Translations under genes and position numbers: made by a program | Part shown: in pieces, positions 7,934 through 64,000 of the stretch | Layout: every line of letters starts with the position of its first letter | Position numbering within the stretch: position 1 is the stretch's first letter | The notes under the pieces: model-generated | What the model saw: the letters and a program-made list of their open reading frames with translations, nothing else | Told to the model about the DNA's origin: nothing | The model's database searches: none | NCBI GenBank assembly: GCA_964545165.1 | Contig: CAZJEQ010000005.1 | Location: forward strand, 7,072-71,071 | DNA length: 64,000 nucleotides | Reading direction: 5' to 3' | Origin: an uncultured Candidatus Saccharibacteria bacterium | GTDB taxonomy: Bacteria; Patescibacteriota; Minisyncoccia; Phycocordibacterales; UBA2100

Positions 7934-8938
7934 ATGCAGAAATCGGAAGGACTCATACTGGGCAGGCTCTTGCAAAAGCTGGGCCGCACAATGGGTGCCA
8001 CCGTCGTGATCGAGCCAGAATGGGGCGTGGTCGGGCAGATCACCTTCAAATCAGGCAAGCGCAGCTACTTCCGCTACAACACGCTCGATCTCAATCCCGT
8101 GGGCGCCTCCGACGTTGCCAAAGACAAAGACTACGCAGCATTTTTTATCCGCAAGCTCGGCTTCCCCGCAGTGGAGGGCAAGACATTCTTCCGCGCGGAT
8201 TGGGCGCAGACGCTTGGATCGAAACGTGATATCGATGCCGCCTATCGCTACGCGGCGAAGCTTGGATTCCCCGTGATCGTGAAGCCCAACAGCGGCAGCC
8301 AGGGCACGGGCGTCGCACTCGCACACAACAAGAAAGACTTCTACCGTGCGATGCGCGCGGTATTCAAGAGCGACAAGGTCGCGCTCGTGCAGAGGAAAGT
8401 CAGCGGCACGGATTACCGCATCGTCGTACTCGATAACGAAATTATCTCCGCCTATGAGCGCATTCCGCTCAGCGTGACCGGCGATGGCCGCTCGACCATC
8501 GCACAGCTGCTCAATAAGAAGGCGCGCGGCTTCGTGGCCTCCAGCCGCGATACACAGCTCAACCTCGCGGACCCCCGCATGGGTGAAAAGCTCAAGCAGC
8601 AAAAGCTCTCGATGAAATCGGTCGTGCCAATGGGCGTGCAGATATTCCTCCTCGACAATGCCAATCTCTCAACCGGGGGCGACGCGGTGGATGCGACAGA
8701 GCGCGTACATCCGGAATTCAAAACGATCGCCATTCGCCTCACCCGCGAGATGGGCCTGCGCATCTGCGGCGTCGACCTGATGATCGAAGGCGATATTTCA
8801 CAGAAGCCCGGGAAATACCACGTGCTAGAGATCAACGCCGCCCCCGGACTCGATCACTATGTAAAGGGTGGCAAGGCGCAGGAGAAAATCGTCGAAGATT
8901 TGTACCTCCGCGTACTCAAGAGTTTGGCGCGCCCTTGA
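7934..8938 (+). CDS. ATP-grasp ligase (RimK/cyanophycin-synthetase-like)
   Basis: 334 aa; ...GFPVIVKPNSGSQGTGV...YHVLEINAAPGLDHY; divergent from purL with only 53-nt intergenic. Confidence 0.6.
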   Translation: MQKSEGLILGRLLQKLGRTMGATVVIEPEWGVVGQITFKSGKRSYFRYNTLDLNPVGASDVAKDKDYAAFFIRKLGFPAVEGKTFFRADWAQTLGSKRDIDAAYRYAAKLGFPVIVKPNSGSQGTGVALAHNKKDFYRAMRAVFKSDKVALVQRKVSGTDYRIVVLDNEIISAYERIPLSVTGDGRSTIAQLLNKKARGFVASSRDTQLNLADPRMGEKLKQQKLSMKSVVPMGVQIFLLDNANLSTGGDAVDATERVHPEFKTIAIRLTREMGLRICGVDLMIEGDISQKPGKYHVLEINAAPGLDHYVKGGKAQEKIVEDLYLRVLKSLARP

Positions 8939-10100
8939 GCGCATACGTCACGAAAAGCAGTGAGCAGATACCAAGTGCAACGATGGCAAGTCCATGCACG
9001 ACTCCCAAAAAGAGGAATGCAAGCAGACCGACCATAACAGCAAATAAGCTTCCGAGCGTGCGCGCTATCTCGATGGCTACTGCGGATTCAAGTGGATTAC
9101 CGCGTGTCGCCACATCAGCACCCAAATGAGCATCGAAGCCGACACGAAGAACGCCCTGCGCAATGCCGATAACGAGCAAGAGCATCCCGATAAACGGTGT
9201 AAGCGCTACATACGGCACCGTAAGTAAACCGGCGATAAAGAGAACGCCGCATATATAAAAGACCCATCGGTGAGATTTCTTATCCCACAAAATCCCTGTC
9301 GCATAGAGCAATAATGCAGAGCCAATGAGCGCGATGCTCGTTACGGTGACTGGCGTATTCACGCCCGCATACTGTGCTATCAGAAAAAGCGGAATAACGG
9401 TCGCAAGCGTGTCTGCAACAATGCCGTGCCCGATATTGCCGAATACCGCACGGGTGTTCAGCCGAGAGAACAGACTTCTCAGGGATGGATTAAAGACGAT
9501 GCTTGGCACATTGAGTGCGGGGATGTGCCGGAGCGGCATCAGCGAAAGCAGGAGGAAGACTGTCCCGAATAGAAAGAGATAGGCGAGAGAATCTTCACGA
9601 TTGAGCAGAAGCGCTACGACTCCAGCGATGACGATAGAAACTGCGCGGGCAATTTCGAGAAACGAACTATACAAACCAGGCTTTGCAGTATCACCGATGA
9701 TGGAATACTTGAGCATGTTCGAAAACAGGAAATACATTCCGTTGGCTGAGAAGAAAACGCAGAGCAACGCAACGAAAGGAATCAAGTGCGTGGCAAATGA
9801 ATCTTGAAAGACGAAAAGTGTACAGTTCACTCCCGTAAGAAGCGCCAGTGTAAGTCCTACGACGACGACGCCATTCGTCCGTCGATGGAAAGGTAACAAA
9901 AACAAGAGACTGAGCCATCGCGCTAAAAAGCCGACTCCGTAAGCTAGCGCCAACGCAACAAGCACGATGAGGAAGGAATGTGTGAGTTCATAAAAAAGAT
10001 ACACGCCGAATATGTCGGTAACTCCGAGCCCTATGCGAAAGAGTAGCGAATGCCAAAAGTAGTTCTTCTGTGCGACGGGGAGTGAACGGAACGAATTCAT
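8916..10100 (-). CDS. MFS-type transporter (multi-TM)
   Basis: ORF 8916..10121; start trimmed to ATG 10098-10100 (MNSFRSLPVAQ...), which forms an ATGA overlap with folA stop. About 12 predicted TM helices. Confidence 0.55.
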   Translation of the reverse strand: MNSFRSLPVAQKNYFWHSLLFRIGLGVTDIFGVYLFYELTHSFLIVLVALALAYGVGFLARWLSLLFLLPFHRRTNGVVVVGLTLALLTGVNCTLFVFQDSFATHLIPFVALLCVFFSANGMYFLFSNMLKYSIIGDTAKPGLYSSFLEIARAVSIVIAGVVALLLNREDSLAYLFLFGTVFLLLSLMPLRHIPALNVPSIVFNPSLRSLFSRLNTRAVFGNIGHGIVADTLATVIPLFLIAQYAGVNTPVTVTSIALIGSALLLYATGILWDKKSHRWVFYICGVLFIAGLLTVPYVALTPFIGMLLLVIGIAQGVLRVGFDAHLGADVATRGNPLESAVAIEIARTLGSLFAVMVGLLAFLFLGVVHGLAIVALGICSLLFVTYALKGAPNS

Positions 10101-10597
10101 GCGCGTTCGAGGTCGACCCACGAATATTTCACGCCATCGGATTCGCGATCTTCGCGGAAGACTTCTCGTGTAAATTCGCTTTCAAATGCGGGGAAAAAGG
10201 TGTCGCCCTCCGCTTCAGCATCTATAAATGTCATGCAGAGGCGCGTCGTGAATGGCAGCGCCTGCTCGTAGATCTGCGCGCCGCCGCCGATCGTGATCCA
10301 CTCCTGATCGATCTCTTTTGCCTTCTCTATCGCTTCTTCTACCGATGCAGCGACGATGACACCCTCGTATTTCCAGTCCGCATCACGCGTGACGACAATA
10401 TTCGTACGATTACGCAGCGGCTTGCCTAAGTAGCCGACGATGGATTCAAAGGTCTTCCTACCAAGGATGATTGGGTGGCCTTCGCTCAATTGCTTAAAGC
10501 GTTTCAAATCCTCCGGGATGTGCCACAGGAGTTTGTTTTCTTTTCCCAAAACTCTGCCTTTTCCTATCGCGACTATGGCTGCAATCACCGGTTTCAT
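10097..10597 (-). CDS. folA: dihydrofolate reductase
   Basis: MKPVIAAIVAIGKGRVLGKENKLLWHIPEDLKRFKQLSEGHPIILGRKTFESI...; canonical DHFR. Confidence 0.85.
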   Translation of the reverse strand: MKPVIAAIVAIGKGRVLGKENKLLWHIPEDLKRFKQLSEGHPIILGRKTFESIVGYLGKPLRNRTNIVVTRDADWKYEGVIVAASVEEAIEKAKEIDQEWITIGGGAQIYEQALPFTTRLCMTFIDAEAEGDTFFPAFESEFTREVFREDRESDGVKYSWVDLERA

Positions 10598-40722: not shown

Positions 40723-43089
40723 CTAGACGATCTCGCAGGTGCCGCCAGCGCAGGCGAGCTCTTTCTTGAGCTCAGTCTCGTCGGTGCGTTCGTAGATCAC
40801 CAGCTTCGAGTAGTCCATGGTCGGGAAATTCTCGGCAAGACGATCGTAGGTCTTCTTGTCGATGGTCTCGTATGGTGCCAAGCGATAGACGTGATTCTCG
40901 CGCGGGAGAAATGACAGACCGCCGACGATGTCCCAGTTTTCATACAACCAGGAGACCACCGCCACCCACTCTTCTTCGCCGACAGAGATCGTCGCGGATG
41001 GATTATGCTCCGTCCAATTGAGCTTCACCATTTTCCAGTATTCAAGCTGCTGGATCGCGCTCTGATCGTTCTTGTAGATCGATCCCTGCGGTGCTTTGAC
41101 CGGGAACTCCAAGACATAGGTATTCGCCTCGCCCATCGCTTGACCGACTTCCGGGTGGAGCGGAATGCCCTGATCCTTTACCATCTTGAAGAGCGAGTCG
41201 GTTGCGGAGATGCGAACGCGGCGGATGTAGTACTGCGCGTGGCGCGGGTGCAATCCCGATGAGCAGTCGAAAGTCTGGGAGACGGTGCCGGAAGGCTTCA
41301 CACAGGTGATCGAATTCGACATCGGTACACCGAAGCGCTTCGCGTATGTCTGGTTGGTCTTGATGGCAGCGTCGCGCATCTTGCGCATCACCTTGCCATC
41401 GCGCACCGTAGCGCAATCCCACTGACCCGTGATCGAGACACCAAGGAGGCGCTCCTGCTCGCAATTCTCCGTCCAATCCTTGGAAATGTAATTGAATTTG
41501 GTGAGCGTCGACTGGTAGGTGCCGAGGATGGTCGCGAGCTTGGTCTTCCTCAAGAGGCTCGCCTCGGTGTCATCAGCACGTGCGATGACTTCTGAGAGAT
41601 TGCAGAACTGCTTGGACTGCAAGATGATTTCACCGCACGGGTTGGTTCCTACCTGACCGATGTAGCCCTTGAGCTTCTTTCCGTGCTTTTTCTCGAGGAA
41701 TTTGAAGCGACGCTCGGGCATGGTCTTCTCAAGCGCACCGCGGTTGAAAATACCGCGCTCGCCCGAGCCTGATTTCATCAGTGCCACCCATTCATCCATG
41801 AGCTCGGCATTGGTCGGCTTGGTCTCGTAGACGGCGGAGTTGTTCGCCATCGCACGATGACCGTCGGTGAGGAAGAACTGCCCTTTCTTGGCATCGCGGA
41901 GCTCGAGGTCGTCGAGATCCGAGAGCGAGATCATGGCTGAGCGGCGTACGCCACCGGCGACGACGCATTCACCGATTTTGCAGATGATATCGTGTGCATC
42001 GATGTTGCGCAGGCGTCGGCCCTGGCGTCTCAAAATACGCTCGCGAGCAAACACGAGGAGCGAGCGAAGCGGCTCGGGACCCGAGGCTTTGCCGCCCATC
42101 GTTGCGAGGCGCGATCCTGCCGGACGGATGATCGAGTAGTCGAAATCAATATCCTTACCGGCGTACCAAGTCTTGAGCCCAAGCGTGAGCGCATCGCACC
42201 AGCCCTCCTTGGAATCCGCGATAACGTGCGTCGGCAACTTCTCGCCCATTTGCTTCTGAATCTGTGGGAGCTGTTCGATGTTTTGGCTCTCCACGGCGAA
42301 GCCGACGCCCGTCCCCTGCATCGAGAGGTACATGATCTCAGCGAAGTCTTCGAGCTTCACCGGTGCAGTAAATGAGCAGTTGTAGAAGCAGGTGTTGCAC
42401 TTACGAGCCGGTGCACCGGCAAATTGCATCGCGCGCATCGATGGCATGACCTCCTGCTTGAGGATTCCCTCACGCACTTCGGTGTACTCCTTCTTCGTGA
42501 GCTTGTCGCCGAGATTCTCTTTCATAAATTCGACATAGCGGTCGACTGTCTCTACCCAGGTCTCACGGCGCTGTTCGCTCTCGATCCATCGCGCGTAGGT
42601 GCGGAGGTAGATAAATTCACCGAGTGGATTGTTCTTGAAATATTTCTTGGACTCCTCGGCAAGCTTTTTGACGTGCTCGGGCACCTCGCCCTGCTCGACA
42701 CGGATCTTGGAGCGCTCTTCGCGGTACAAGATGAAGCTCTTGGCGGTGGTCACGTAGTCGGAGAGCATGAGCTGGCGCTCAATCTCGTCCTGGCATCCTT
42801 CAACGGTGGGGAGAAAATTCTTGTAGGTCTTGGCAATGCGCATCATCTCGCCGGCAACCTTGTGTCCGACGACGGTGGCCTCGTCGCGCGATCCTTCATT
42901 GGAAGCATTCATCGCTTTTTCGATGACATGCACGATTTTGTCGAATTCAAACGGGACAATACGGCCGTCACGCTTCTGAATATTCGACAAATACTTCTTA
43001 TAGATACGGTTTGAAGATGCTGATGAGCTTTCTGCCGGGGCTGCTAAAGAGCCCGCCTTTTTGGTGCGAGAACCGGTTGATTGTGCCAT
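40723..43089 (-). CDS. nrdJ: class II (adenosylcobalamin-dependent) ribonucleotide reductase with N-terminal ATP-cone
   Basis: ORF begins TTG at 43095; ATG at 43087-89 (MAQSTGS...). ATP-cone N-terminus; TNPCGEI active-site motif. Confidence 0.9.
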   Translation of the reverse strand: MAQSTGSRTKKAGSLAAPAESSSASSNRIYKKYLSNIQKRDGRIVPFEFDKIVHVIEKAMNASNEGSRDEATVVGHKVAGEMMRIAKTYKNFLPTVEGCQDEIERQLMLSDYVTTAKSFILYREERSKIRVEQGEVPEHVKKLAEESKKYFKNNPLGEFIYLRTYARWIESEQRRETWVETVDRYVEFMKENLGDKLTKKEYTEVREGILKQEVMPSMRAMQFAGAPARKCNTCFYNCSFTAPVKLEDFAEIMYLSMQGTGVGFAVESQNIEQLPQIQKQMGEKLPTHVIADSKEGWCDALTLGLKTWYAGKDIDFDYSIIRPAGSRLATMGGKASGPEPLRSLLVFARERILRRQGRRLRNIDAHDIICKIGECVVAGGVRRSAMISLSDLDDLELRDAKKGQFFLTDGHRAMANNSAVYETKPTNAELMDEWVALMKSGSGERGIFNRGALEKTMPERRFKFLEKKHGKKLKGYIGQVGTNPCGEIILQSKQFCNLSEVIARADDTEASLLRKTKLATILGTYQSTLTKFNYISKDWTENCEQERLLGVSITGQWDCATVRDGKVMRKMRDAAIKTNQTYAKRFGVPMSNSITCVKPSGTVSQTFDCSSGLHPRHAQYYIRRVRISATDSLFKMVKDQGIPLHPEVGQAMGEANTYVLEFPVKAPQGSIYKNDQSAIQQLEYWKMVKLNWTEHNPSATISVGEEEWVAVVSWLYENWDIVGGLSFLPRENHVYRLAPYETIDKKTYDRLAENFPTMDYSKLVIYERTDETELKKELACAGGTCEIV

Positions 43090-43160
43090 GCGCAAGAACT
43101 CTAATTTCTAATGGGAGATTCATTGTACTCCTCCTCGTTCTCGGCGAGGCGAGATGAAAA

Positions 43161-43294
43161 GTGGATAAGTCTTCGTTCGGCGGTACCTCTTTTGCCGTCG
43201 CTGTCTGCGGCTGCTGCCGCAGCGCTCAGTCTCGGCCCCGTCGGGCCTGCGAAGACGGCAAAAGAGGTACCGACCTCACTCCGTTGTGGATAAG
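43161..43294. promoter_or_regulatory. symmetrical structured element upstream of nrdJ: 9-bp direct repeats GTGGATAAG flanking a 19-bp perfect inverted repeat that encloses two nested hairpins
   Basis: GTGGATAAG 43161-69 and 43286-94. Inverted-repeat arms CGGTACCTCTTTTGCCGTC 43181-99 and GACGGCAAAAGAGGTACCG 43255-73. Inner palindromes CTGCGGC-tgct-GCCGCAG and GGCCC-cgtc-GGGCC. Confidence 0.45.
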
Positions 43295-43350
43295 AGGGAT
43301 TCCGACGGCAGATAGCGACGGTAAAACACACATACCGCCGAGCGACGCCT

Positions 43351-43878
43351 CTATAAACTTACCTTCTCACCCGTGGAGAGCGCATGAGCACGTACCCAAT
43401 CAGCAGGAAGCTCCAGTACGTAGCGCGCAGCGCGTGGCGGCACATATGCAAGCGGGTAGCTCTCGGGCGTGGCGCTCTCAACGACGTACACGACAGTGCC
43501 ATCGCTCGCGATCCAGACAATATCTATGGGAAACAACATGTCTTTCATCCAAAAGCCGTACTGCCCTTCTTCATCAAAGACAAAGAGCATGCCTTCATTT
43601 TTGCCGAGACCCGTGCGGCCACTGAGGCCCTGCTCGCGCTCTGCGGGAGTATCGACGATATCTACCCGGATACGCTCGCCTTTGATCAAGACCGTGTGCC
43701 CTGCGGGCGCCTGCTGTTCTGCAGAAGTGGCTGCGGGAGGCGCGACGACGATCGGTCGCGAGATGGGAGAGACTGGCGCATGCGTCGGCGTAACGGCGCT
43801 TATCGCCGCAGCGTAGATGCCACCACCTGCCAACGCAACGATGCCGGCAGCACCAAGGTAGATGAAAATGCGTCGCAT
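43351..43878 (-). CDS. DUF192-like secreted/membrane-anchored protein
   Basis: ORF 43351..43959 trimmed to ATG 43878 (MRRIFIYLGAAGIVALAGG...). Confidence 0.55.
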   Translation of the reverse strand: MRRIFIYLGAAGIVALAGGGIYAAAISAVTPTHAPVSPISRPIVVAPPAATSAEQQAPAGHTVLIKGERIRVDIVDTPAEREQGLSGRTGLGKNEGMLFVFDEEGQYGFWMKDMLFPIDIVWIASDGTVVYVVESATPESYPLAYVPPRAARYVLELPADWVRAHALSTGEKVSL

Positions 43879-43927
43879 TTCGGACTGGCCGAAAAAGTCG
43901 TCGAGCATCAGAGAAGTATACCCTTGA

Positions 43928-44022
43928 GATTCCCAGCAGGGAATCAGGCTACACCCCACGTCGCACTCCTGCAGGAGTGCGACCGGGTGTAACTCTTCAA
44001 ATTCTCTGCTGAGAATTTGAAG
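43928..44022. repeat. composite palindromic repeat cluster (A-like hairpin, inverted B-unit, inverted A-unit), left flank of 3-gene islet
   Basis: GATTCCC-agca-GGGAATC (43928-45). ACACCCCACG-[TCGCACTCCTGCAGGAGTGCGA]-CCGGGTGTAAC (43951-93) is an inverted B unit. TTCAAATTCTC-tgct-GAGAATTTGAA (43997-44022) is an inverted A unit abutting the DUF1761 stop. Confidence 0.65.
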
Positions 44023-44023
44023 G

Positions 44024-44428
44024 TTAAATAAAGAGCAAGATCGCAGCTATCATGAGCGCAACAAACCAGTAGCCCCCGTTGATCGCATAGAGCGTGGCTG
44101 ATCGCCCCTCCCACAACACCTGGCTGAGCAGCACCGGTGCGAAAAAGCCCGCCCACACAAACGCGCCGAAGAAGAGCGCATGCACAACACCGTGTATGTG
44201 CATCAGATCGCCGACATGCCGCATGGCGGCTGCGAGTACCAGCGCTGCGACAAGACTCACCAGTGCAAAGAAAAAGCTCTGTCGCACACCGCGCTCCGCC
44301 ATCTCGGGCGTGATATTGGTGAGGCGCATCCACACGCGGCCAAATACCTTGGCGTGATACCACAGATGGCCGAAGAGAAAAATCGCGAGACCCGCCGCGA
44401 GGGTGGGCATGAACGCGAAGAGAGACAT
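44024..44428 (-). CDS. DUF1761-like small membrane protein
   Basis: ORF 44024..44851 trimmed to ATG 44428 (MSLFAFMPTLAAGLAIFLFGHLWYHAKVFG...); the upstream ORF-track portion overlaps the ATP-grasp gene. Confidence 0.5.
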   Translation of the reverse strand: MSLFAFMPTLAAGLAIFLFGHLWYHAKVFGRVWMRLTNITPEMAERGVRQSFFFALVSLVAALVLAAAMRHVGDLMHIHGVVHALFFGAFVWAGFFAPVLLSQVLWEGRSATLYAINGGYWFVALMIAAILLFI

Positions 44429-44447
44429 GCCAATAATGATAGCACTG

Positions 44448-45644
44448 CTACGCTTCCCGCTTCCACAAATCCCACACGGCCCCAGCGACGTTTGAAGGCT
44501 CACCTTCGAGCGGGGCGTGATGCAGATCGATGTACGGCAGCGAATTCGCTTCGAGTATGCCCCAGCGCTGACCATCGGGATCCTGCTCGGGATGCGGAAT
44601 GATGACATCGAAGCCGACGACGGGAGTCTGGAGGAGTGTGGCAGCGCGCTCAATGTGGGCACGCAGTTTTGGATGGATCGCCTCGGGTATCTCGCGCGTC
44701 CTGCCGCCTTCGAAGCGTCCCGTGCGACGTGAGAGCTCGACGATCGTACCCAACGGGACCACCGAGCTACTCGTATAGCCAGATCGGGCGAGGTAGGCAC
44801 GGTGCTCGTCGTCGAGTACGATTTCAGCCACGCGCGCGGGGCGCGAAGCATTCTTCTGCGCGATGAGCGCTTCTATAGAATGTACGCCATCGCCCTCGAG
44901 ACCCACCTGGAACATCTGCAAGAACCCTGCAAGTCGGCCGTCTACGACGGTCGCGCGCGAGACCGCGCCTTCGAGATGCTCTTCGATGAGCACATCTCGA
45001 CAGAGCTGCTTGGCGAGGTCAAACGCCGGCGTCAGGTGCTCAAGCGAGCGAATATTGGTGGTGGTGTGCCGCGCACGCGAGCCAATACGCGGCTTCACGA
45101 CCAACGGCGCAGCGAGCGTCGCGAATGCGCGCGCTGCATCCTGACGCGTGCGTGCCAGCTCGGCGCGCGAGACCGGAATGCCATGCGACGCAAGGAATTG
45201 TTTGAGGCGGTACTTATCATCAATCCCCGCGTACATATCCGCTGCAAGCGATGCAGGAATGGGGAGGCTCTGAAAATATTCCCATCTCCCATTGATGCGC
45301 GCTCGATAAAATTCGCTCGGGTACGAGAGCATCACGAGCTGTTCCATCTCGATACCGCGTCGCTCAGCCTCCTCCCAAATGACCTGCGAGCGATACGAGC
45401 AGGCCTTTTCCGGGTCATGCGAGGAACGTGCGATGCGCAGGAAATGGGCAGCACCCGCGACACGATTGAGCATCTGATCGACGAGCGCATTCGTCTGTCG
45501 CATCCCTGGCATGTTGCCAAACGAGTGGTCGGCCATAAATGCCTCGAGCGATTGCACCAAGTGTGTGGAGAAATGTGGCACCGGCGTATCGCCACAGGCG
45601 GCGCACGCGCCACGCTTCCCCTTGCTCGGTGCCGTAATTTCCAT
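44448..45644 (-). CDS. ATP-grasp ligase (paralogue of 7934..8938)
   Basis: ORF to 45653; second ATG 45644 preferred because TATAAT lies 7 nt upstream. C-terminal ...WGILEANSLPYIDLHHAPLEGEPSNVAGAVWDLW parallels the ...VLEINAAPGLDHY... region of the other copy. Confidence 0.6.
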   Translation of the reverse strand: MEITAPSKGKRGACAACGDTPVPHFSTHLVQSLEAFMADHSFGNMPGMRQTNALVDQMLNRVAGAAHFLRIARSSHDPEKACSYRSQVIWEEAERRGIEMEQLVMLSYPSEFYRARINGRWEYFQSLPIPASLAADMYAGIDDKYRLKQFLASHGIPVSRAELARTRQDAARAFATLAAPLVVKPRIGSRARHTTTNIRSLEHLTPAFDLAKQLCRDVLIEEHLEGAVSRATVVDGRLAGFLQMFQVGLEGDGVHSIEALIAQKNASRPARVAEIVLDDEHRAYLARSGYTSSSVVPLGTIVELSRRTGRFEGGRTREIPEAIHPKLRAHIERAATLLQTPVVGFDVIIPHPEQDPDGQRWGILEANSLPYIDLHHAPLEGEPSNVAGAVWDLWKREA

Positions 45645-45780
45645 AGGACGCATTATAGAAGAAAGCTCCTCTTTCGAGGAGCCTCCTTTTAGTGACCGCC
45701 GCCCATCATATTGGTTGGGTAGTTAGCAACTATGTATTCAGTATCGCATAGGCCAAGCCCCGCGCGATCACGCATGGGGA

Positions 45781-47154
45781 TTACGCATCGGAGCGCGGAG
45801 GGACGTCGAACATAGACGCAGAGACGTCTTCGCCCACGAGATGGCGGGCAATTTTCCTTCCCCCATAGACCGACGGCAAGATACCGACGCCATTGCAGCC
45901 CAGATTGTAGAGCAAGACGGGATTCTGCGGTTCGGGGCCAATGAGACGCATGCGATTCTTGGTGTAGCCCATAAGCCCATGCCAGGTGAACGCGTAATCG
46001 ATCTTGTGATTGGGCTGCAAGCTATAGACGTGGTGGACGAAGGTGTCGATCTTCTCTGCCATTTCATCGGGATATTCATTCTCGAATGAGTACGGTGTGA
46101 TCTCATCAATATCGACATCGGGGCCACCGATTGAGATCAGATTATGCTCGGTTCCTTTTTCGTATTCATACGGACGGCGCGTCAGATACACGTACGGACT
46201 CTCCCCGCCCGGCGTCGGATCGTTGTAGTAGCTGATCGCAATGGGCAACTTATTCATCTTCTCCAAATATCCCGACATATAGCCCACTTTGCCGGTGATG
46301 AGATGGTGATACTTGGCGTCAATATCGAGCCCACTCTCATTGATAATGTGGATGCTCTCGAAGCCGTTGGTGCACAAGACGACGCGACCTGCCGTGATGA
46401 CATGCGTGTCCGCGTCGAGCAGCGCATGATCTGATTTGAGCACGAGCTTATTGACTGGTGTGTGCTCGTAGAGTGCGAAACGATTCGGATTTTTCTTGAG
46501 AAGAAATGTGACGACTTCTTGGCAAAAAAGCGCACTATTCACACAGCCCTTCTGCGACGAGACGACGGCGATATATTCTTCAGCGCTGGTCTCGAGCATG
46601 CCGAGTAGATCCGCACGCGGGATCACATCATAGAGACCGGCGTACTCTTCGGGGATTTCTTTGGCGATCTGCGACTGGTCGGATATATGGAGCATGGCGA
46701 AGCGGACCCCTGCCTGCCGTTTCGCCTGATTGTTCTCGAGATTCCAGAGAACCTGCTCGAGACTCGTGAGTCCGCCGTGTCCTATAAAACGAGAGAACGG
46801 GATGTCGAGCTCTGCATCGGAATACATCTCATCAAGCAGCTCCCACGCATCATCAACCGCCTTTTGGCCAGCTGCTGCTTTCTCTGCTCCGAATTCCTCC
46901 ACCATGCTCGCGAATCCTCGCTCAAAGTAGCTCACTACCTGCCCCGCGTTGTGCCCGGTCGCGCCATGCGCGAGCCGATGCCGCTCCACGAGCGCCACAC
47001 TCTTATCGGTGTATTTGAGCGTGAAATACGCTGTCGCTACCCCGGCAATACCCGCGCCGATAATCGCCACATCCACTGCGGTGTCTGTCGTGAGGCGCTT
47101 GATTTCGCGCTCCTGATCGAGCTGATGGAGCCAGGGAGAATGATTCTTCCGCAT
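45781..47154 (-). CDS. FAD-dependent oxidoreductase (DAO family; glycine/D-amino-acid-oxidase-like)
   Basis: 457 aa, ...VDVAIIGAGIAGVATAY... dinucleotide-binding motif. Confidence 0.75.
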   Translation of the reverse strand: MRKNHSPWLHQLDQEREIKRLTTDTAVDVAIIGAGIAGVATAYFTLKYTDKSVALVERHRLAHGATGHNAGQVVSYFERGFASMVEEFGAEKAAAGQKAVDDAWELLDEMYSDAELDIPFSRFIGHGGLTSLEQVLWNLENNQAKRQAGVRFAMLHISDQSQIAKEIPEEYAGLYDVIPRADLLGMLETSAEEYIAVVSSQKGCVNSALFCQEVVTFLLKKNPNRFALYEHTPVNKLVLKSDHALLDADTHVITAGRVVLCTNGFESIHIINESGLDIDAKYHHLITGKVGYMSGYLEKMNKLPIAISYYNDPTPGGESPYVYLTRRPYEYEKGTEHNLISIGGPDVDIDEITPYSFENEYPDEMAEKIDTFVHHVYSLQPNHKIDYAFTWHGLMGYTKNRMRLIGPEPQNPVLLYNLGCNGVGILPSVYGGRKIARHLVGEDVSASMFDVPPRSDA

Positions 47155-47161
47155 CGCACAA

Positions 47162-47370
47162 GTATAACCTTCAAATTCTCAGCAGAGAATTTGAAGAGTT
47201 ACACCCGGACATATCTCTGCAGAGATATGACGTGGGGCGTCACCTGAAGATTCTCAGCAGAGAATCTCAAGAGTTATGCCCGGACACATCTCTGGAGGGA
47301 TGTGACGTGGGGTATAACCGAAGAGTTACACCCGGACATATCTCTGCGGAGATATGACGTTGGGCATACC
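47162..47370. repeat. composite palindromic repeat cluster (units A1-B1-A2-B2-B3), right flank of islet
   Basis: A is TTCAAATTCTC-agca-GAGAATTTGAA. B is GTTACACCCGG-[22-nt palindrome centred on CTGCAG, CTGGAG or CTGCGG]-CGTGGGG.... Three B copies have cores ACATATCTCTGCAGAGATATGA, ACACATCTCTGGAGGGATGTGA and ACATATCTCTGCGGAGATATGA. Confidence 0.7.
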
Positions 47371-47413
47371 GCAGTATAGAGCCACGTGAGAAAACGTGAT
47401 TTCACGTCGGCAC

Positions 47414-49471
47414 CTATCGCTGTTTCGGCCCAACACGAACAATTTGCGACTTTTCGGAGTAATTCCCAGCAGAATCATAGACCCGCAGCACCAATTTCTG
47501 ATCGCCCGATTCAAGAAACGGGACGAAGAGCTCGGAACCTATGGGAAGAAATAATCGATTACCGAGGTCAACATAGTAATTTTGCTGAATGCCGCTTCCC
47601 GCATCTTGCGCTTCAAATGCGAAGCGCACCACATCACCTTCCGCGATATGTTCCGAGCTCAAGTGTATTGAAACGATCGCGGGCGGGCTCTGATCTGCCT
47701 GCAAACGATAGTGCGCGACAGGTCCTCCTCCTGCGAGCTGGAGATGAAAGTAGAAAATACCGTCTCCCGGGATAGGCACCGTGACCGCCGGATCCTGCGT
47801 CGTGTGCTCCTTGGAAGGGATGGTCTGCGGCAAGGTGTCGAAGGCGTATGCATACACTGCTCCAGGCTTACCCCGCCACACGAACCGTGCTTTCGATGCA
47901 TTGTACCAACGGCTCTGATTCGGATGGGTCGGAGAGAAAAGTATAAACGACCGGTTGCTTTCAGTGGTCGTAGCCGTAGCCATAAGTAAGGTGGGATCAA
48001 AATTGTCTACTCGATAACTTCCTGCTTGCGCCATACGCAACACATTCGTGCCCAAACCGTCGCTGGCGAGCACGTGTGTATTTTCGTTGTCAAAAGAAAG
48101 CGTAAATGTACCGGTGCGTCGTGGCAAAACGACAACGTCGGCGATCTTATGTGATCCTCGCTCTCCTCCCGATTTGAAGAAAGCGCAGGTCAACTTCGCC
48201 TGGCCGAGAGACGCATCGATCCTACTCTCGATCACATACGAGCAGGTGGAACTCGCCACTTCGAGCGCCTTGACTTCGATCGCTTCCGGGTCAAACGCGA
48301 GCTGCACCTCAACAACATTAATCGGCTCATCCCCCGTATCAACAACGATCGCGAAGCGCTGCTCGAAGCCCATCTCGTAGATCCCGAATTCTGGCTGCAA
48401 TCGGAGGGTGGAATTATAGAGGGGGTAAGGAATTCGATTGAGTTTGAGGTACCCGACATTCTGCAGGTGCAGCGCAAAGAGCGCGAGCACCAGAACGAGG
48501 GAAGATGCAAGCGTGAGTAGCAGGTAGTAGCGCCATGCGCGCTCCTCGCCTCGCATACGCACATGGAATCGAAGGGCGAAGAAAATAAACGTGCATACGG
48601 TCAAGAGTGCTGTCGCGAGATGCAGAATATCCGAAAAATCCGTACGCGGAATAAACACGAGCGCTCCGCCAGGGCTCTGTTCAAGGCCAGGAAAAACAAT
48701 ATTGGTAACAAGGTAGAAGCGACCGTCACTGAACGAGATGGTTTTTCCGGAATTGCCCTCCTGGACCCAATCGGAATGCGAGTGGAAATAAGAATTCACC
48801 AGCGTGCGCGTCTCAGGATCGGAAAAGCTGTCGCCATAGACACCGAATTCACGTGTGTAAAACACGACTTCAACGCCGCGCGGCAGAAAGCTATCTCGGA
48901 AACGAGTAGCGTACGCATCGTCCATCAGGTGATTCGCGAACACCATCCCGATCATCTGATCCTCGTGCATGACACGCCTGCCGGTCGTCATGATGAGCTG
49001 CGTCGGATCAAACCCGGAGATTTCAATACTCTCAACAGTGCCGTGGATATCACCGGCACGGCCGTGCGGCGTTGTGATAAAAGCGTTATTGCCGAGATTA
49101 CCGACGCTCATCGTACGGCTCAAAAGCGTGCCCTCCTTATTGGTGATACCCATAAGCCCGATCTTCCGCACTGCTATTTCGGCCTTGCTGATCTCGATCA
49201 GTTTTTCCGAATCTTGTGCAATGAGATATTTCTGCAGCAGATCGTTTTGGGCAACGGCATCACCTTGCTCCTTGAGGTACGCCATGTCTTCGGCAATTCC
49301 TGCATGAAAAGCATCGGATGATTTGGTCTCGATAGAAGAAACGTACAGTGCCCCACCGATATGGAACGTTACGAAGAGAAACAGGAAAACCCCAAGCGTA
49401 ATGTAGAGCGCCTTCAGGAGGGATTTCCCTCGACGAATGAGATCCGGATCATACCAGGAATGTCGGCTCAT
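47414..49471 (-). CDS. hypothetical membrane protein with large extracytoplasmic domains (685 aa)
   Basis: N-terminal TM, roughly 250-aa domain, TM pair near residues 300-345, C-terminal roughly 340-aa domain; no confident family. Confidence 0.5.
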   Translation of the reverse strand: MSRHSWYDPDLIRRGKSLLKALYITLGVFLFLFVTFHIGGALYVSSIETKSSDAFHAGIAEDMAYLKEQGDAVAQNDLLQKYLIAQDSEKLIEISKAEIAVRKIGLMGITNKEGTLLSRTMSVGNLGNNAFITTPHGRAGDIHGTVESIEISGFDPTQLIMTTGRRVMHEDQMIGMVFANHLMDDAYATRFRDSFLPRGVEVVFYTREFGVYGDSFSDPETRTLVNSYFHSHSDWVQEGNSGKTISFSDGRFYLVTNIVFPGLEQSPGGALVFIPRTDFSDILHLATALLTVCTFIFFALRFHVRMRGEERAWRYYLLLTLASSLVLVLALFALHLQNVGYLKLNRIPYPLYNSTLRLQPEFGIYEMGFEQRFAIVVDTGDEPINVVEVQLAFDPEAIEVKALEVASSTCSYVIESRIDASLGQAKLTCAFFKSGGERGSHKIADVVVLPRRTGTFTLSFDNENTHVLASDGLGTNVLRMAQAGSYRVDNFDPTLLMATATTTESNRSFILFSPTHPNQSRWYNASKARFVWRGKPGAVYAYAFDTLPQTIPSKEHTTQDPAVTVPIPGDGIFYFHLQLAGGGPVAHYRLQADQSPPAIVSIHLSSEHIAEGDVVRFAFEAQDAGSGIQQNYYVDLGNRLFLPIGSELFVPFLESGDQKLVLRVYDSAGNYSEKSQIVRVGPKQR

Positions 49472-50819: not shown

Positions 50820-50862
50820 AATCTCAGCCATCACTGGCTATGCGATCGTATCTATTGCTACC

Positions 50863-51015
50863 CTAATCCTTCTTTTCTGCATCCGAGAATACGCCTCTGA
50901 TGCTTTTGATAGCGTCGCCTATGCCGCGAGCAAGTTCTGGGATCTTCTTAGGACCAAAGATCAACAGAAGAATAGCGGTCAGAATAATGATTTCAGTGGC
51001 TCCAAGTCCAAACAT
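50863..51015 (-). CDS. tatA: twin-arginine translocase subunit TatA/E (copy 1, divergent)
   Basis: Not in ORF track (50 aa): MFGLGATEIIILTAILLLIFGPKKIPELARGIGDAIKSIRGVFSDAEKKD. Its start overlaps tatC 3' end by about 23 nt in another frame. Confidence 0.7.
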   Translation of the reverse strand: MFGLGATEIIILTAILLLIFGPKKIPELARGIGDAIKSIRGVFSDAEKKD

Positions 51016-51724
51016 AAGATCTGCTGCTATTGAATAATATTGTCACTTCATACAACAACACAAGCGGGACTGTCATCGCCGCTAATGATAGGACGTCGGT
51101 TGGTGGAAGTAAAGCTGCCAGCAAGGCGAACACGAAATAGGCTATACGCCTCTTATCCCGGAGCGTCTGGGGTGTCATTATCCCCAGGCGCATGAGGAGC
51201 GTGAGCAGCAATGGGAACTCAAAAACAAACCCCAAGAGCGCTGCTGTGACAAATATTTCAGAGAGAAACTGACTGATATTCCAAATGTTGGCGATTCCGA
51301 GACTCACGTTGATGGCAGCAAAGAGCCCGAGCGCATAGTAAAGAATAAAAAATCCATACACAAAGCCGGCGATGAAGAGTGCGATGCTGACCGGAATTGA
51401 CTTCAATAGCCTGACCTTCTCACTGCTCGTGAGTGCCGGCGCAATAAAGACGTAAAAGCTGTAGATGACATACGGCGCCGAGGCGACGATGGCGAGGAAG
51501 AATCCGACATCCATGGCGACGGTCGCAAACTGGAATGGTGAGGTGGTGGCGATAACCACATCTTCAAAATGGACGAAGCTCAGTGCCTTTTTTAAAATGA
51601 TTCCTGCCGAGAGAAACCCGGTGACGAAAACAGAAATAAACAGAACAACGCCCCAATACAGACGATTGCGCAGATCTTCCAAATAGGGAAGAAATTTTTC
51701 CATGTCCATAGAGAAAGATTCCAA
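50993..51724 (-). CDS. tatC: twin-arginine translocase subunit TatC
   Basis: 243 aa, six TM helices, typical TatC topology. Confidence 0.8.
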   Translation of the reverse strand: MESFSMDMEKFLPYLEDLRNRLYWGVVLFISVFVTGFLSAGIILKKALSFVHFEDVVIATTSPFQFATVAMDVGFFLAIVASAPYVIYSFYVFIAPALTSSEKVRLLKSIPVSIALFIAGFVYGFFILYYALGLFAAINVSLGIANIWNISQFLSEIFVTAALLGFVFEFPLLLTLLMRLGIMTPQTLRDKRRIAYFVFALLAALLPPTDVLSLAAMTVPLVLLYEVTILFNSSRSYVWTWSH

Positions 51725-51849
51725 TCGTGTTGCGGATTGGACGAGCGGGTGAGAGACGGTAGCGCTGCGAGGATTCGATACGCGGGAGTCTATTTCCGGT
51801 CGCGCATCACCTGCTCAGCACGTCCGCTCACGAGCGGTGCCTCAATTAT

Positions 51850-52014
51850 TTATTGTGTCCCCGTCTCCTTCTTGTCACCATCTGAAAACCCACTTCTGAT
51901 GTACTTGAGAGAATCGCCAATGGCTCGTGCAAGTTCTGGAATCTTCTTTGCACCGAAGAGCAGAACGAGGATGCCGGCCAAAATGATGAGCTCTCGAGCT
52001 CCTAATCCAAACAT
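51850..52014 (-). CDS. tatA: TatA/E (copy 2)
   Basis: ORF 51850..52056 trimmed to MFGLGARELIILAGILVLLFGAKKIPELARAIGDSLKYIRSGFSDGDKKETGTQ. Confidence 0.75.
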   Translation of the reverse strand: MFGLGARELIILAGILVLLFGAKKIPELARAIGDSLKYIRSGFSDGDKKETGTQ

Positions 52015-52246
52015 ACTTTTGTATTGCGTCCTAAATTTTATAATGACCAACCTCACACCTATACGAGGTTCGTCTTAATTACTGTGTCCCCGTCTCCTTC
52101 TTGTCACCATCTGAAAACCCACTTCTGATGTACTTGAGAGAATCGCCAATGGCTCGTGCAAGTTCTGGAATCTTCTTTGCACCGAAGAGCAGAACGAGGA
52201 TGCCGGCCAAAATGATGAGCTCTCGAGCTCCTAATCCAAACATACG
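51853..52246. repeat. tandem direct duplication (229-nt unit, 164 nt at 100% identity) carrying tatA
   Basis: 51853-52017 and 52082-52246 match base for base; the spacers differ. Confidence 0.85.
52079..52243 (-). CDS. tatA: TatA/E (copy 3, identical protein to copy 2; not in ORF track)
   Basis: Sequence 52083-52246 is identical to 51854-52017 and encodes the same 54-aa TatA; the only coding difference is a synonymous CAA-to-CAG. Confidence 0.7.
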   Translation of the reverse strand: MFGLGARELIILAGILVLLFGAKKIPELARAIGDSLKYIRSGFSDGDKKETGTQ

Positions 52247-60783: not shown

Positions 60784-63700
60784 TGGATAATCGCGCCATC
60801 AAAATCTCAAGCTATTTTTTCTTGGCGCTTTTTGTTTTTTGTTTTTGCGCGACCGATATTGCATATGCCAGTTATCAAAAGATCGCTCCGGGCGATACGG
60901 TCACGTTGGGTGAATTTGTCTTTGACGATAATTTTGTCCCGACCACAACGCCGTGCACTATCGGTATAACCAGCCCTGCGAATGTCGAGGTGGTGCCTTC
61001 GACCACGCCCATGACTGCCAACAGTGACGGCTGGCACTACTATTCCTACACGACCGCCTCCAATGCAGCTTCCGGTGTCTGGCCATCGGTGATGATCTGC
61101 GGATCAACGGCAGCCGGTGACAGGGTTTTGGTGGACAAAAGCTTTATCGTTGATTGGTCGGTGGTCTCGACGAGCACTATTAAAGGAGTGGTGGACGGCA
61201 GCCTGACGGTGGCGACGACATCGCTCTCGGCAGTCATCAACGCCAACACCAACGCCGCCGTACTATCCGCTTCATCAAGCTTGTACGCGACCCTTCCCGC
61301 TACGATCTGGTCGTTCAGCGGTAGGACGCTCACTTCTTTTGGATCGCTCGTGGCTGATACTGCCGCTGCCGTGTGGGCATCCGGCACGCGCTCCCTCACC
61401 ACCTTCGGCTCGCTCGCAACTGAGATCTGGGCAAGCGCGACCCGCACACTTACAGGCGCGGGCTTGGATACCGGCTCACTTGCCACCCTGTCCGACGTGC
61501 AGACAGCCACGAGTAGCTTGGCTTCTGCAATTACGGCAGGTACGAGTGCCGTCAATAGCAATACGAATACACAGGTCTTGAGCGCCTCATCATCACTCGC
61601 TGCAGCGATTACAGCTGGTACAAGTGCTGTTAACAGCAACACGAATGCGCAGCTGCTCGCCGCGTCCACGTCACTCGCGAATTTCATCAACAGCAATAGC
61701 AATGCGACGATTCTTGCGGCATCGACATCACTTGCAGCCTACCTTAGTGCACACACCGACGCGGCGTCAACATCGATTGCCACCTTCGTGAACGCAAACA
61801 CCAACAACACGGTATTAGCCGCCTCGACATCGATCGCTGCGTTTGTGAATGCGAATACCAATGCGCAACTCCTTGCAGCCTCTACGTCGCTTGCCACCTT
61901 CGTGAATGCGAATACCAACAACGCCGTATTCATGGCGTCGACATCCCTGGCTTCTGCCATTACTGCGGGTACGAGTGCGGTGAATACGAATACCAACAGC
62001 ACGGTATTGGCTGCTTCCACATCTCTCGCCACCTTCGTAAATGCGAATACCAATAGCGCGGTGTTGGCAGCATCCACCTCACTCGCCACATCGATTCCGA
62101 TCAATGTATGGAATGCCACGAGCCGCTCGCTCACCACCTTCGGCACACTCGTGAGCGATGTTGCCTCAGCTGTGTGGTCCTCGGGCACGCGCTCCCTCAC
62201 CACCTTCGGATCGCTCGCAACTGAGATCTGGGCAAGCGCGACACGTACGCTCACCGGCGCAGGACTCGATACAGGTTCACTTGCCACTGTCTCTGATGTA
62301 CAAACGGCCACGAGTAGCTTGGCTTCTGCGATTACGGCAGGTACGAGTGCCGTCAATAGCAATACGAATAGCACCGTATTGGCGGCATCCACTTCACTCG
62401 CGAATTTCATCAACAGCAACAGCAATGCGACCATCCTTGCGGCATCTACCTCACTCGCCGCGTACCTCAGCGCTCACACCGACGCGGCGTCCAGCTCGAT
62501 CGCTTCGTTTGTAAATGCAAACACCAACAGCACCGTGTTAGCCGCGTCGACATCGATCGCATCGTTCGTGAACGCTAATACCAATGCGCAAGTCCTGAGC
62601 GCTTCCTCATCTCTCGCTGCAGCTATTACGGCAAGCACGGGCGCGGTGAATACGAATACCAACAGCGCGGTGTTGGCAGCATCTACCTCGCTCGCCACCT
62701 TCGTAAATGCGAATACGAACAATGCAGTGTTGGTGGCTTCCACATCACTCGCTTCAGCGATTACAGCAGGCACGAATGCCGTGAATACGAATACAAATGC
62801 TGCCGTATTGTCGGCTTCATCAAGCTTGTACGCGACCCTTCCCGCTACGATCTGGTCGTTCAGCGGTAGGACGCTCACCTCGTTCGGTACGCTTGTGAGC
62901 GACGTGACTGCTGCAGTGTGGGCCTCGGGCACGCGATCCCTCACCACCTTCGGCTCGCTCGCCACTGAGATCTGGACCAGCGCGACCCGCACACTTACAG
63001 GCGCGGGACTGGATACCGGCTCGCTCGCGACCGTCTCTGATGTGCAAACGGCGACGAGCTCGCTCGCTTCTGCCATCGTGGCCGGAACGAGCGCAGTGAA
63101 CAGCAACACGAATGCGCAGTTGCTCGCCGCGTCCACGTCGCTCGCGACCTTCATCAACAACAATAGCAATGCGACCATCCTTGCAGCATCGTCATCGCTC
63201 GCGGCGTATCTCAGCGCTCACACCGATGCGGCGTCAACATCGATTGCCACCTTCGTGAACGCAAACACCAACAACACGGTATTGGCAGCCTCAACATCGA
63301 TCGCTGCGTTTGTGAATGCGAATACCAACAACACTGTGTTGGCAGCGTCTACGTCACTGGCCTCTGCAATTACCGCCGGAACGAGCGCGGTGAATAGCAA
63401 TACCAATAGCACCGTATTAGCCGCGTCCACATCGCTCGCTTCAGCAGTTGCGGCAGGTACGATTGCAGTGAACAACAATACCAACAGCGCCGTGTTGGCA
63501 GCATCTACGTCGCTTGCCACATCGATCCCGCTCAACGTCTGGAGTGCGACGAGTCGCTCGCTCACCAGCTTCGGCACACTTGTGAACGATGTGGCCACCG
63601 CAGTGTGGTCCTCGGGCACCCGCTCCCTCACCACCTTCGGATCGCTCGCCACTGAGATCTGGACGAGCGCGACACGTACGCTGACGGGTGCAGGGCTCGA

Positions 63701-64000
63701 TACCGGATCGCTCGCCACCTTCTCTGACGTCCAGACCGCCACGAGCTCACTCGCATCAGCCATTACTGCTGGTACGAGCGCGGTGAATACCAACACGAAT
63801 GCACAGGTCTTGAACGCTTCCTCATCTCTCGCTGCAGCAATTACGGCAGGTACGAGTGCCGTCAATAGCAATACGAATGCACAGGTCTTGAGCGCGTCTT
63901 CGTCTCTCGCTTCTGCAATTACCGCCGGAACCAGCGCGGTGAATGCGAATACGGATGCGCAGGTGCTTGCGGCGTCCAGCTCACTCGCCTTTTCGATCCC
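60784..64000 (+). CDS. giant secreted repeat protein (>1072 aa, 3' end beyond window) built from nested 18-aa repeats
   Basis: Uninterrupted plus-strand reading frame from ATG 60784 to the window edge, so absent from the ORF track. Signal peptide MDNRAIKISSYFFLALFVFCFCATDIAYA. 54-nt units of type LAASTSLATFVNANTNNxV. The four minus-strand ORFs at 61046..63871 are its antisense shadows. Confidence 0.7.
61271..64000. repeat. nested coding repeats: 54-nt (18-aa) units inside roughly 0.7-0.8 kb super-repeats (four copies)
   Basis: 63-nt identical blocks at 61271-61333 and 62815-62877. TIWSFSGRTLTSFG / NVWNATSRSLTTFG motif recurs at about 61291, 62093, 62839 and 63531. Confidence 0.8.

Follow-up and report, generated by a model that had tools for sequence, protein, structure and literature searches.

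The locus and its genes

The locus described here lies in a 64,000-nucleotide stretch of contig CAZJEQ010000005.1, referred to as the window, and is centred on a gene for a stand-alone ATP-grasp ligase and on a very short open reading frame (mini-ORF) directly upstream of it. Judged by its conservation, this mini-ORF of 18-27 bp appears to be a previously unannotated and deeply conserved element ahead of a lineage-core, uncharacterised ligase family. A first-pass annotation had presented the interval as three co-directional genes for a DAO-like oxidase, an ATP-grasp protein and a DUF1761 protein. All three ORFs do lie on the minus strand at the coordinates it had given, and the gene identities are correct by Pfam and NCBIfam profiles. 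The ligase's real partners, the mini-ORF with its terminator and the DUF192 gene, had been overlooked. In the direction of transcription, the features are:

45781-47154, minus strand: DAO-family flavin adenine dinucleotide (FAD)-dependent amine-oxidase-like enzyme, 457 amino acids (aa); Pfam DAO, 5e-29
45740-45748, minus strand: P1, extended -10-like promoter box TGCGATACT, about 30 nucleotides (nt) upstream of the mini-ORF; conserved where the clade is aligned
45689-45709, minus strand: mini-ORF ATGATGGGCGGCGGTCACTAA encoding MMGGGH, member of the conserved ORF family
45657-45682, minus strand: intrinsic-terminator-like hairpin GCTCCTC-GAAA-GAGGAGC (45682-45665) with the T-run TTTCTTCT (45664-45657)
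45652-45657, minus strand: P2, TATAAT, 7 nt before the ATG at 45644; leaderless-type ligase box
44448-45653, minus strand: stand-alone ATP-grasp ligase, homologue of the cyanophycin-synthetase G domain, 401 aa; NCBIfam, 1.7e-44
44024-44428, minus strand: DUF1761 small membrane protein, 134 aa, four hydrophobic segments by hydropathy; Pfam, 1.7e-24
43351-43908, minus strand: DUF192 protein with N-terminal membrane anchor, beyond the interval first annotated; Pfam, 4.3e-31
40723-43095, minus strand: class II (B12-dependent) ribonucleotide reductase (RNR), the core gene that anchors synteny; NCBIfam RTPR, 8e-91

The mini-ORF upstream of the ligase

In total, 87 loci around ligase homologues (numbered L001 and so on) were examined with hidden Markov models (HMMs) built from the window proteins, and 80 of them are species loci. 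Roughly 95 nt of DNA in front of the ligase stay conserved even where the upstream genes differ, and the leader typical of the family contains an ORF of 5-9 codons ending in G-x-H-stop, with the consensus M-x-[LIVF]-G-G-H-stop. Such a mini-ORF was found in 67 of the 79 species loci with upstream sequence; among the controls, the opposite strand had one in 1 of 75 cases, random windows from these loci in 25 of 1480 and shuffles in 24 of 1500. The commonest peptides are MLGGH (22 species), MTGGH (7), MSLGGH and MVGGH.

Among 58 distinct loci, variation within the mini-ORF is three-periodic. Positions 1 and 2 of the Gly codons are invariant, with the first Gly written as GG followed by A (31), C (22) or T (5), while His is encoded by CAC (50) or CAT (8) and Leu by any of CTC, CTT, CTA, CTG, TTA and TTG. 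Periodicity of this kind at the codon level is a coding pattern, and it is held in genomes ranging from about 30% to 60% GC. In the strict set, the stop codon is TAA in 49 cases, TAG in 9 and TGA in none, and every mini-ORF stop is thus readable by release factor 1; TGA ends 9 of the 37 window genes (24%).

Past the mini-ORF stop, at a distance of 0-20 nt (6 nt in the window), there is a GC-rich hairpin with an A-run on one side and a T-run on the other; 51 of 57 relatives have a strong one (z < -2), and 6 of 6 alignable pairs show compensatory changes. A -10-like box (TAnAnT) precedes the mini-ORF by about 30-45 nt in 58 of 67 loci. Between terminator and ligase, a second box stands 6-7 nt ahead of the start codon; the arrangement TAnnnT-N5-8-start is in frame in 44 of 75 loci, versus 0 and 4 in the other two frames. 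Neither Rfam, searched with the window and four relatives, nor the literature searched held a family or paper describing this leader, and RNAalifold run on the whole P1 leader returned no consensus.

The same geometry between box and ATG is found before the oxidase, DUF1761 and DUF192 genes. Across the window, 18 of the 37 genes have an in-frame start that a TAnnnT box precedes by 6-8 nt (for example at 47154, 45644, 44428, 43908, 57148 and 53183), and a Shine-Dalgarno-like motif is present in only five. Since -10 boxes abut the starts and Shine-Dalgarno motifs are rare, leaderless expression is probably usual in the organism.

Upstream of the mini-ORF promoter, 17 of 58 loci also carry a DnaA-box-like motif, TATCC[AC]C, which turns up in 1% of random windows. 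Its distance is fixed: in 14 loci it precedes the last six codons by 71-80 nt. The loci listed with it are L001, L011-L017, L023, L024, L031, L033-L035, L039, L069, L072 and L081, and the window has a degenerate form, TAATCCCCA, at 45775-45783.

The ATP-grasp ligase

The probable true start of the ligase is the ATG at 45644, which is Met4 of the long ORF and corresponds to the Met at which relatives begin. Homologues are about 400 aa and full length, and all belong to Patescibacteria (Kaiserbacteria, Paceibacteria, Yonathbacteria, Nomurabacteria); in a scan of one genome per species, relatives were found in 259 species.

Pfam ATP-grasp matches to the protein are weak and below threshold. The NCBIfam cyanophycin synthetase model matches at 1.7e-44, over model positions 213-469 only and with 152 bits against a cut-off of 850-877, followed by N-acetylglutaminylglutamine synthetase and GshAB. 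The GshAB model is matched only in its C-terminal part (435-749; 97 bits against 425), with no match to the glutamate-cysteine ligase domain. A profile of the ligase found the CphA1 structures (PDB 7lg5/7txv) at 8e-41 over residues 145-397. In Foldseek, the AlphaFold model (predicted local distance difference test, pLDDT, 85) fitted best on the G domains of CphA1 and CphA2, with a template modelling (TM) score of 0.65 over about 324 columns, and on GshAB. These matches stood well above those to Ddl, LysX and PsnB, with a Foldseek probability of 1.0 for CphA1, GshAB, Ddl and LysX alike.

Both the ATP-grasp fold and its nucleotide- and metal-binding residues are present: K187, E224, D349, E368 and N370 are invariant or nearly so (K187, E368 and N370 strictly) and align with the CphA1 G domain. 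Ahead of this core lie an invariant N-terminal motif C17-x2-C20...P24...H27, a variable helical stretch with two long helices, and a conserved block YRSQVIWEEA..RRGI..MEQ. Cyanophycin synthetase itself was considered and rejected, because the N and M domains are missing and the score is far under the cut-off. By its profile and fold matches the protein is a stand-alone G-domain-like ligase of an uncharacterised family.

Two further candidates were tried. The ATP-grasps of graspetide systems in the Candidate Phyla Radiation (CPR; PMC8939145) belong to a different family with long precursors. A metal-binding system made of the GGH peptide, the C-x2-C...H motif of the ligase and a His-rich loop of DUF1761 lost its DUF1761 part, the histidines being unconserved.

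A paralogue had been pointed out at a distance in the window:

7934-8938, plus strand: distant ligase paralogue, 334 aa, also cyanophycin-synthetase-G-domain-like

The relationship is confirmed but distant (25% identity over 237 aa, E 3e-11), and profile HMMs assign both ATP-grasps to the cyanophycin-synthetase-G-domain type. The paralogue has no N-terminal extension and sits between PurL, 26 nt away and too tight for a mini-ORF, and a 401-aa protein at 8916-10121, with dihydrofolate reductase beyond. Of the neighbours proposed for it, folA was borne out (dihydrofolate reductase, 2.3e-47) and the MFS transporter was not, the 401-aa protein being without a Pfam match at 1e-3.

Other ligase genes were noticed beside the family. 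L022 has a second cyanophycin-synthetase-like ATP-grasp in tandem, and in Nomurabacteria-like loci (L045, L047-L049, L052, L053, L055, L056, L058, L070) a divergent, full-length D-Ala-D-Ala-ligase-like gene begins 1-87 nt after the ligase, with ribosomal protein S1 often preceding.

DUF1761 and DUF192

DUF1761 (PF08570) is recognised with 86.9 bits against a gathering cut-off of 31. The closeness of the ATP-grasp and DUF1761 genes holds, with 19 nt from ligase stop to DUF1761 start, or 37 nt if an alternative start giving 128 aa is used. In relatives, the gene directly after the ligase is DUF1761 in 14 of the 80 species loci and in another seven contigs (including L001, L004 and L006), where the called genes overlap by 1-14 nt or are spaced by at most 16 nt. 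This overlap or adjacency supports a link between the two genes, which was the part of the proposed oxidase-ligase-membrane pathway that stood. DUF192 comes next in 14 of the 80 species loci and likewise in L001, L004 and L006.

A word-based homologue search for DUF1761 returned only nine proteins and no domain fusions, and a literature search on DUF1761, DUF192, cyanophycin or ATP-grasp in Patescibacteria and on the mini-ORF peptide strings found nothing relevant. In the clade that has the oxidase beside the ligase, DUF192 was seen to have shrunk to an ORF of 50-62 aa with the N-terminal anchor only (L091 7431-7583; L095 6920-7108; L096 4677-4859), followed by a TraX-family gene; the window retains the full DUF192.

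A possible substrate peptide

The explanation we favour, with a probability of roughly 45%, is that of a backbone locus with a conserved ligase unit in which the mini-ORF peptide is the target of the ligase, the oxidase having been relocated next to it and the repeats being repetitive extragenic palindromic (REP)-like elements. The conserved unit consists, in order, of P1, a leader of about 40 nt, the mini-ORF, the intrinsic terminator, the leaderless-type -10 box and the ligase, followed in the Kaiserbacteria-like clade by DUF1761 and DUF192. DUF1761 would be a membrane protein with four transmembrane segments and DUF192 a membrane-anchored, extracytoplasmic one, and both have presumed roles in the unit.

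According to the ATP-grasp mechanism, the ligase would use ATP to convert a carboxylate into an acyl-phosphate, which is then attacked by an amine. The carboxylate activated would be the C-terminal one of the mini-ORF peptide (Gly-Gly-His-COOH); such chemistry on a peptide C-terminus is to be expected because the CphA G domain is the best match. The N-terminal part of the peptide varies in length and sequence and its C-terminus is invariant, which favours a substrate since this is the end that the enzyme class activates. The mini-ORF's own promoter and terminator, the separate -10 box of the ligase and the precedents discussed below argue in the same direction. The terminator could yield a surplus of short peptide-coding transcript, by analogy with mccA-mccB. 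As in precursor genes, a very short ORF conserved at the peptide level stands beside a tailoring-type enzyme. We consider a substrate or primer of the ligase the single most likely reading of the mini-ORF peptide, at somewhat less than even odds. The wider proposition, of a genuine gene across the class Paceibacteria whose pentapeptide serves as substrate, primer or scaffold for a ligase activating the Gly-Gly-His C-terminus, seems rather unlikely to hold in full.

Several points weigh against a substrate. Translation of the mini-ORF and use of its product by the ligase are both presumed, and the mini-ORF is without a Shine-Dalgarno motif, though few window genes have one. In hundreds of species the unit behaves as a housekeeping locus present in single copy would and, having neither a protease nor a recognisable exporter, it does not resemble a typical peptide natural-product cluster. 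Outside the Kaiserbacteria-like part of the family the ligase is not accompanied by DUF1761 and DUF192, and Microgenomates-type members have no intergenic space and no mini-ORF. Furthermore, streamlined genomes can keep gene order without a functional link, and attenuators, too, are classically recognised by a short ORF directly before a terminator.

Alternatively, the mini-ORF could be a cis-regulatory leader peptide, functionless in itself. Ribosomes engaged in its translation, or paused at the stop codon or at Gly-Gly-His, would cover or free the 5' arm of the terminator and set readthrough from P1 into the ligase, as an attenuator or arrest switch sensing amino-acid supply or a ligand. The layout is that expected, a short ORF followed immediately by an intrinsic terminator upstream of the ligase gene, and the spacing from stop to stem is mostly inside a ribosome footprint; the tandem Gly codons and the avoidance of TGA would also fit, and ribosome-controlled termination has been documented for a comparable ORF (PMC4231749). 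However, the -10 box located between terminator and ligase start in 44 of the 75 loci suggests that the ligase need not rely on readthrough from the upstream promoter. No conserved antiterminator pairing or consensus structure was found beyond the terminator, in alignments that are poor, and classical attenuators do not usually keep a peptide sequence across class-level divergence while its N-terminal length varies. A regulatory peptide is a real possibility, which we judge to be the less probable of the two roles.

A third possibility is that the ligase is a peptidoglycan-related amino-acid ligase, acting on the stem peptide or cross-bridge, with DUF1761 and DUF192 at or outside the membrane and the mini-ORF incidental or regulatory. 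Cell-wall genes are indeed repeated neighbours of the ligase across the family: the divergent Ddl-type gene lies directly downstream in about 10 loci, glucosaminidase occurs in 7 and PG_binding in 2, MurJ is within a few kb in the window, L001, L004 and L006, and the L,D-transpeptidase YkuD adjoins the triad of oxidase, ligase and DUF1761 in L091, L095 and L096. Yet cell-wall genes make up a large fraction of these small genomes, which renders adjacency weak evidence, and S1, UvrC and L20 are frequent neighbours too. As the nearest enzymes are the cyanophycin and glutathione synthetases and not Mur or Ddl types, a cell-wall role is considered improbable.

The oxidase

The oxidase belongs to the DAO family (PF01266; 102.4 bits against a gathering cut-off of 27.9, residues 28-436). 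It reached none of the NCBIfam equivalog cut-offs of 174-633 for ThiO, pipecolate oxidase, sarcosine oxidase, DadA and MnmC, the best score being at most 68 bits, and its matches to named amine oxidases are limited to the N-terminal FAD-binding part of about 100 residues. No solved structure related beyond this N-terminus was found for the family. The structure model is weak (pLDDT 60.8, poor over residues 274-410), and its fold matches, to glycine and sarcosine oxidases, support only the general amine-oxidase class.

Homologues are 60-87% identical across Paceibacteria, among the best-conserved proteins of the region, with about 130 invariant positions over 15 diverse Paceibacteria. In none of the 80 species loci does one lie within 8 kb of the ligase, and in L092-L094 the oxidase stands in unrelated neighbourhoods. 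The order oxidase, ligase, DUF1761 was found only in the window's clade, comprising L088 (ligase 85% identical to that of the window), L091 (63%, with a methyltransferase inserted between oxidase and ligase) and L095 and L096 (47-48%), and the gene upstream of the oxidase is a different one in each member. The oxidase apparently has its own promoter box (TATACT, 6 nt before the ATG). Given its absence near the ligase in the 80 loci, its conservation and its variable contexts elsewhere, it is a highly conserved and apparently separately promoted core gene, relocated beside the ligase in one clade only. As a deep partner of the ligase in the pathway first proposed, it does not stand.

The flanking repeats

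The repeat bracketing of the triad was confirmed, in the form of inverted 83-nt two-hairpin modules on both sides:

47163-47372, plus strand: right REP-like array, 2.7 tandem 83-nt copies, between the gene for a 685-aa protein and the oxidase gene; repeat search and covariance model
43917-44028, minus strand: left REP-like module, 1.4 copies, between DUF1761 and DUF192; repeat search and covariance model

The arms 43944-44026 and 47165-47247 are 83 nt long, inverted and 83% complementary, and the tandem array spans 47165-47368. A covariance model, R1, located 43946-44028 on the left (103 bits) and 47163-47245 (100.7 bits) and 47313-47372 on the right, with an overlapping middle copy; no additional copies were found in the 64-kb window, and Rfam gave no family for the modules there or in four relatives. 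Each unit is composed of two hairpins joined by conserved linkers. In seven copies from four genomes, pairing is kept at 89.9% and 10 of 29 pairs show double-sided changes, a level reached by none of 500 shuffles.

Among the relatives, R1 copies lie, in one orientation or the other, between DUF1761 and DUF192 in L091, L095 and L096, and upstream of the oxidase in L095; about 50 other loci gave no R1 match. A metagenome scan with a 17-nt core of the repeat produced mainly chance matches, of which the covariance model confirmed 4 of 80 loci. These four contigs (L113, L150, L154 and L172) carry copies by a hybrid histidine kinase, GAPDH and folate genes. Since the same family is found in such unrelated contexts, the repeats appear to be REP-like dispersed intergenic elements and not the borders of an island.

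The modules also touch promoter-like boxes. At its inner end the right array contributes TATA to the TATACT box that stands 6 nt ahead of the oxidase ATG, and the end of the left module adjoins a TATACT box 6 nt ahead of the DUF192 ATG; the module's outer end (…AAGGTTATA / AAGGGTATA; 47168-47163 / 43925-43915) is part of the TATACT box 5-6 nt before the neighbouring ATG. The same arrangement was seen in L091, L095 and L096. As the module end forms part of these boxes, the element may deliver or preserve a promoter.

Chromosomal context

In seven loci (L011, L013, L014, L016, L024, L026 and L031), a class II RNR lies 1-1.5 kb past the ligase string, and the order ligase, DUF1761, DUF192, RNR is identical to that of the window. 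Beyond the RNR, RNase P RNA, a TPR protein, MurJ and LepA come next in the window, an extended order matched by DUF192-MurJ-LepA in L001 and by TPR-MurJ in L004 and L006, with RNase P RNA also in L004. In L096 the RNR is 81% identical in DNA and RNase P RNA comes next.

Composition is ordinary as well. The ligase has a GC content of.607, third-position GC (GC3) of.679 and a codon distance of.120, with values for window genes of.558±.028,.648±.068 and.178±.051, and the oxidase (.544,.664 and.119) is inside the window gene distribution; both are typical of the window. The 43-49.5 kb region holds no integrase or transposase ORFs, and no tRNA lies near the triad, the closest being at 33.4 kb. The flanking repeats do not have the form of att sites, being inverted members of a dispersed family, and there is no break of synteny of the kind expected for a genomic island, variability being confined to the side upstream of the oxidase. 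The left repeat is placed within a conserved string, between DUF1761 and DUF192, which abut in other lineages; inserted there, it delimits nothing.

The first-pass annotation had suggested that oxidase, ligase and DUF1761 form one accessory amino-acid-metabolite pathway on a recently acquired islet bounded by repeats. In favour of this, the triad is found again in L088, L091, L095 and L096, in L095 once more with a repeat module at both ends, and synteny is lost upstream of the oxidase, where every relative has different neighbours. Against it stand the missing compositional signal, mobility genes and adjacent tRNA, the left repeat inside a conserved string that runs into core genes, the repeat family at unrelated loci, and an oxidase that is better conserved than the ligase, stands alone elsewhere, is separated from it by a methyltransferase in L091, and is never near it in the species loci, each of the two genes having a separate promoter box. 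With ligase-DUF1761-DUF192-RNR syntenic across relatives and an ordinary composition, which the annotation itself had named as grounds for refuting it, the islet is largely refuted already and very improbable, and the interval is instead part of the vertically inherited chromosome backbone of a Paceibacteria-class (Patescibacteria/CPR) bacterium.

Other features of the window

The 255-nt spacer between DUF192 and the class II RNR holds, upstream of the latter (43150-43300, minus strand), an 18-bp perfect inverted repeat GGTACCTCTTTTGCCGTC...GACGGCAAAAGAGGTACC without a match in Rfam. It is flanked by DnaA-box-like sequences, TTATCCACA at 43285-43293 and TTATCCACT at 43160-43168. Window-wide, such motifs number 14 against 8.3±2.8 expected, with no significant enrichment. 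A 171-nt direct repeat occurs three times around the TatC gene (50993-51724) in 50847-52245, the copies at 51846-52016 and 52075-52245 being 99% identical. At 61046-63871 there are four tandem paralogous ORFs of about 217-234 aa with internal repeats of 57-105 nt, and the one tested had no Pfam match. The 685-aa membrane protein at 47414-49471 belongs to no Pfam family, with a faint OmpL47-type match at its C-terminus, and no homologue of it was found in any fetched relative locus.

Significance

The correction of the islet shows that the flanking repeats had been over-read. The ligase family is present in at least 259 species-level Patescibacteria genomes, and since these organisms have very few biosynthetic enzymes, a conserved ligase that consumes ATP likely matters to them. 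Should the mini-ORF prove to be translated, it would equal the smallest gene known so far (18 bp), in a lineage and beside a type of enzyme for which there is no known example. A conserved five-codon gene could also let a function be assigned to the ligase family. If its peptide is the substrate, it would represent a new kind of minimal ribosomal-peptide/ligase system, placed among the core genes of a major uncultured bacterial lineage and not in a sporadic antibiotic cluster. If it is a leader peptide instead, it would give CPR bacteria one of their first defined cis-regulatory switches.

Comparison with known systems

REP elements and bacterial interspersed mosaic elements (BIMEs) are intergenic palindromic repeats. 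The window repeats resemble them in being imperfect palindromes, tandem, found in both orientations, only intergenic and dispersed among unrelated loci of related genomes. Unlike REP/BIME, the window unit has 83 nt and two different hairpins and occupies only two sites in 64 kb, and the module end contributes to the -10-like boxes of neighbouring genes; no RAYT-type transposase turned up, a genome-wide RAYT search not having been made.

Attenuators with leader peptides and arrest peptides include trpL, hisL, tnaC and the cat/erm leaders. The mini-ORF leader shares with them a short upstream ORF whose translation could affect a terminator before the regulated gene. It differs in that no alternative antiterminator was found, the peptide sequence is conserved, and a second promoter box follows the terminator.

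For the ligase, the G domain of CphA1/CphA2 (PDB 7lg5, 7txv, 7wac, 7ta5, 8fxi) is the best match in both sequence and fold. Ligase residues from about 75 to 400 align with it, and the ATP-grasp Lys and the E-x-N metal ligands are kept. In contrast to the roughly 870 aa of CphA, the ligase has 400, with neither the N domain nor the Mur-ligase-like M domain, and adds its own C-x2-C...H motif and helical hairpin. The C-terminal glutathione-synthetase domain of GshAB and N-acetylglutaminylglutamine synthetase are further likenesses, as they extend very short peptides by an amino acid at the C-terminal end; unlike these, the ligase has no GshA or GNAT partner domain and scores far below their cut-offs.

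Precedents also exist for the peptide. PGM1 is cited in PMC8939145 as an ATP-grasp that ligates a ribosomal peptide. The bytA gene of 18 bp encodes the pentapeptide MxYxH of a biarylitide and is accompanied by the P450 BytO (PMC13417212). In its MLGGH form the mini-ORF is similar in its 18 bp, its five residues ending in His, its position beside a tailoring enzyme and its having been missed by gene callers. However, BytO cross-links aromatic side chains, whereas MLGGH has no Tyr or Trp, and bytA is from Actinobacteria, not Patescibacteria.

Finally, in microcin C the 7-codon mccA is followed by an intrinsic terminator and then by mccB (PMC4231749). MccB is an adenylating enzyme of the ThiF/E1 type, not an ATP-grasp, and mcc is an antibiotic operon carried on a plasmid, with genes for export and immunity, whereas the window unit is chromosomal and core-like and its ligase has its own -10 box. 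Both have a promoter, then an ORF of very few codons (7 in mcc, 5-9 in the window family), a terminator in the spacer and a gene for an ATP-using enzyme, which in mcc modifies the C-terminus of the peptide.

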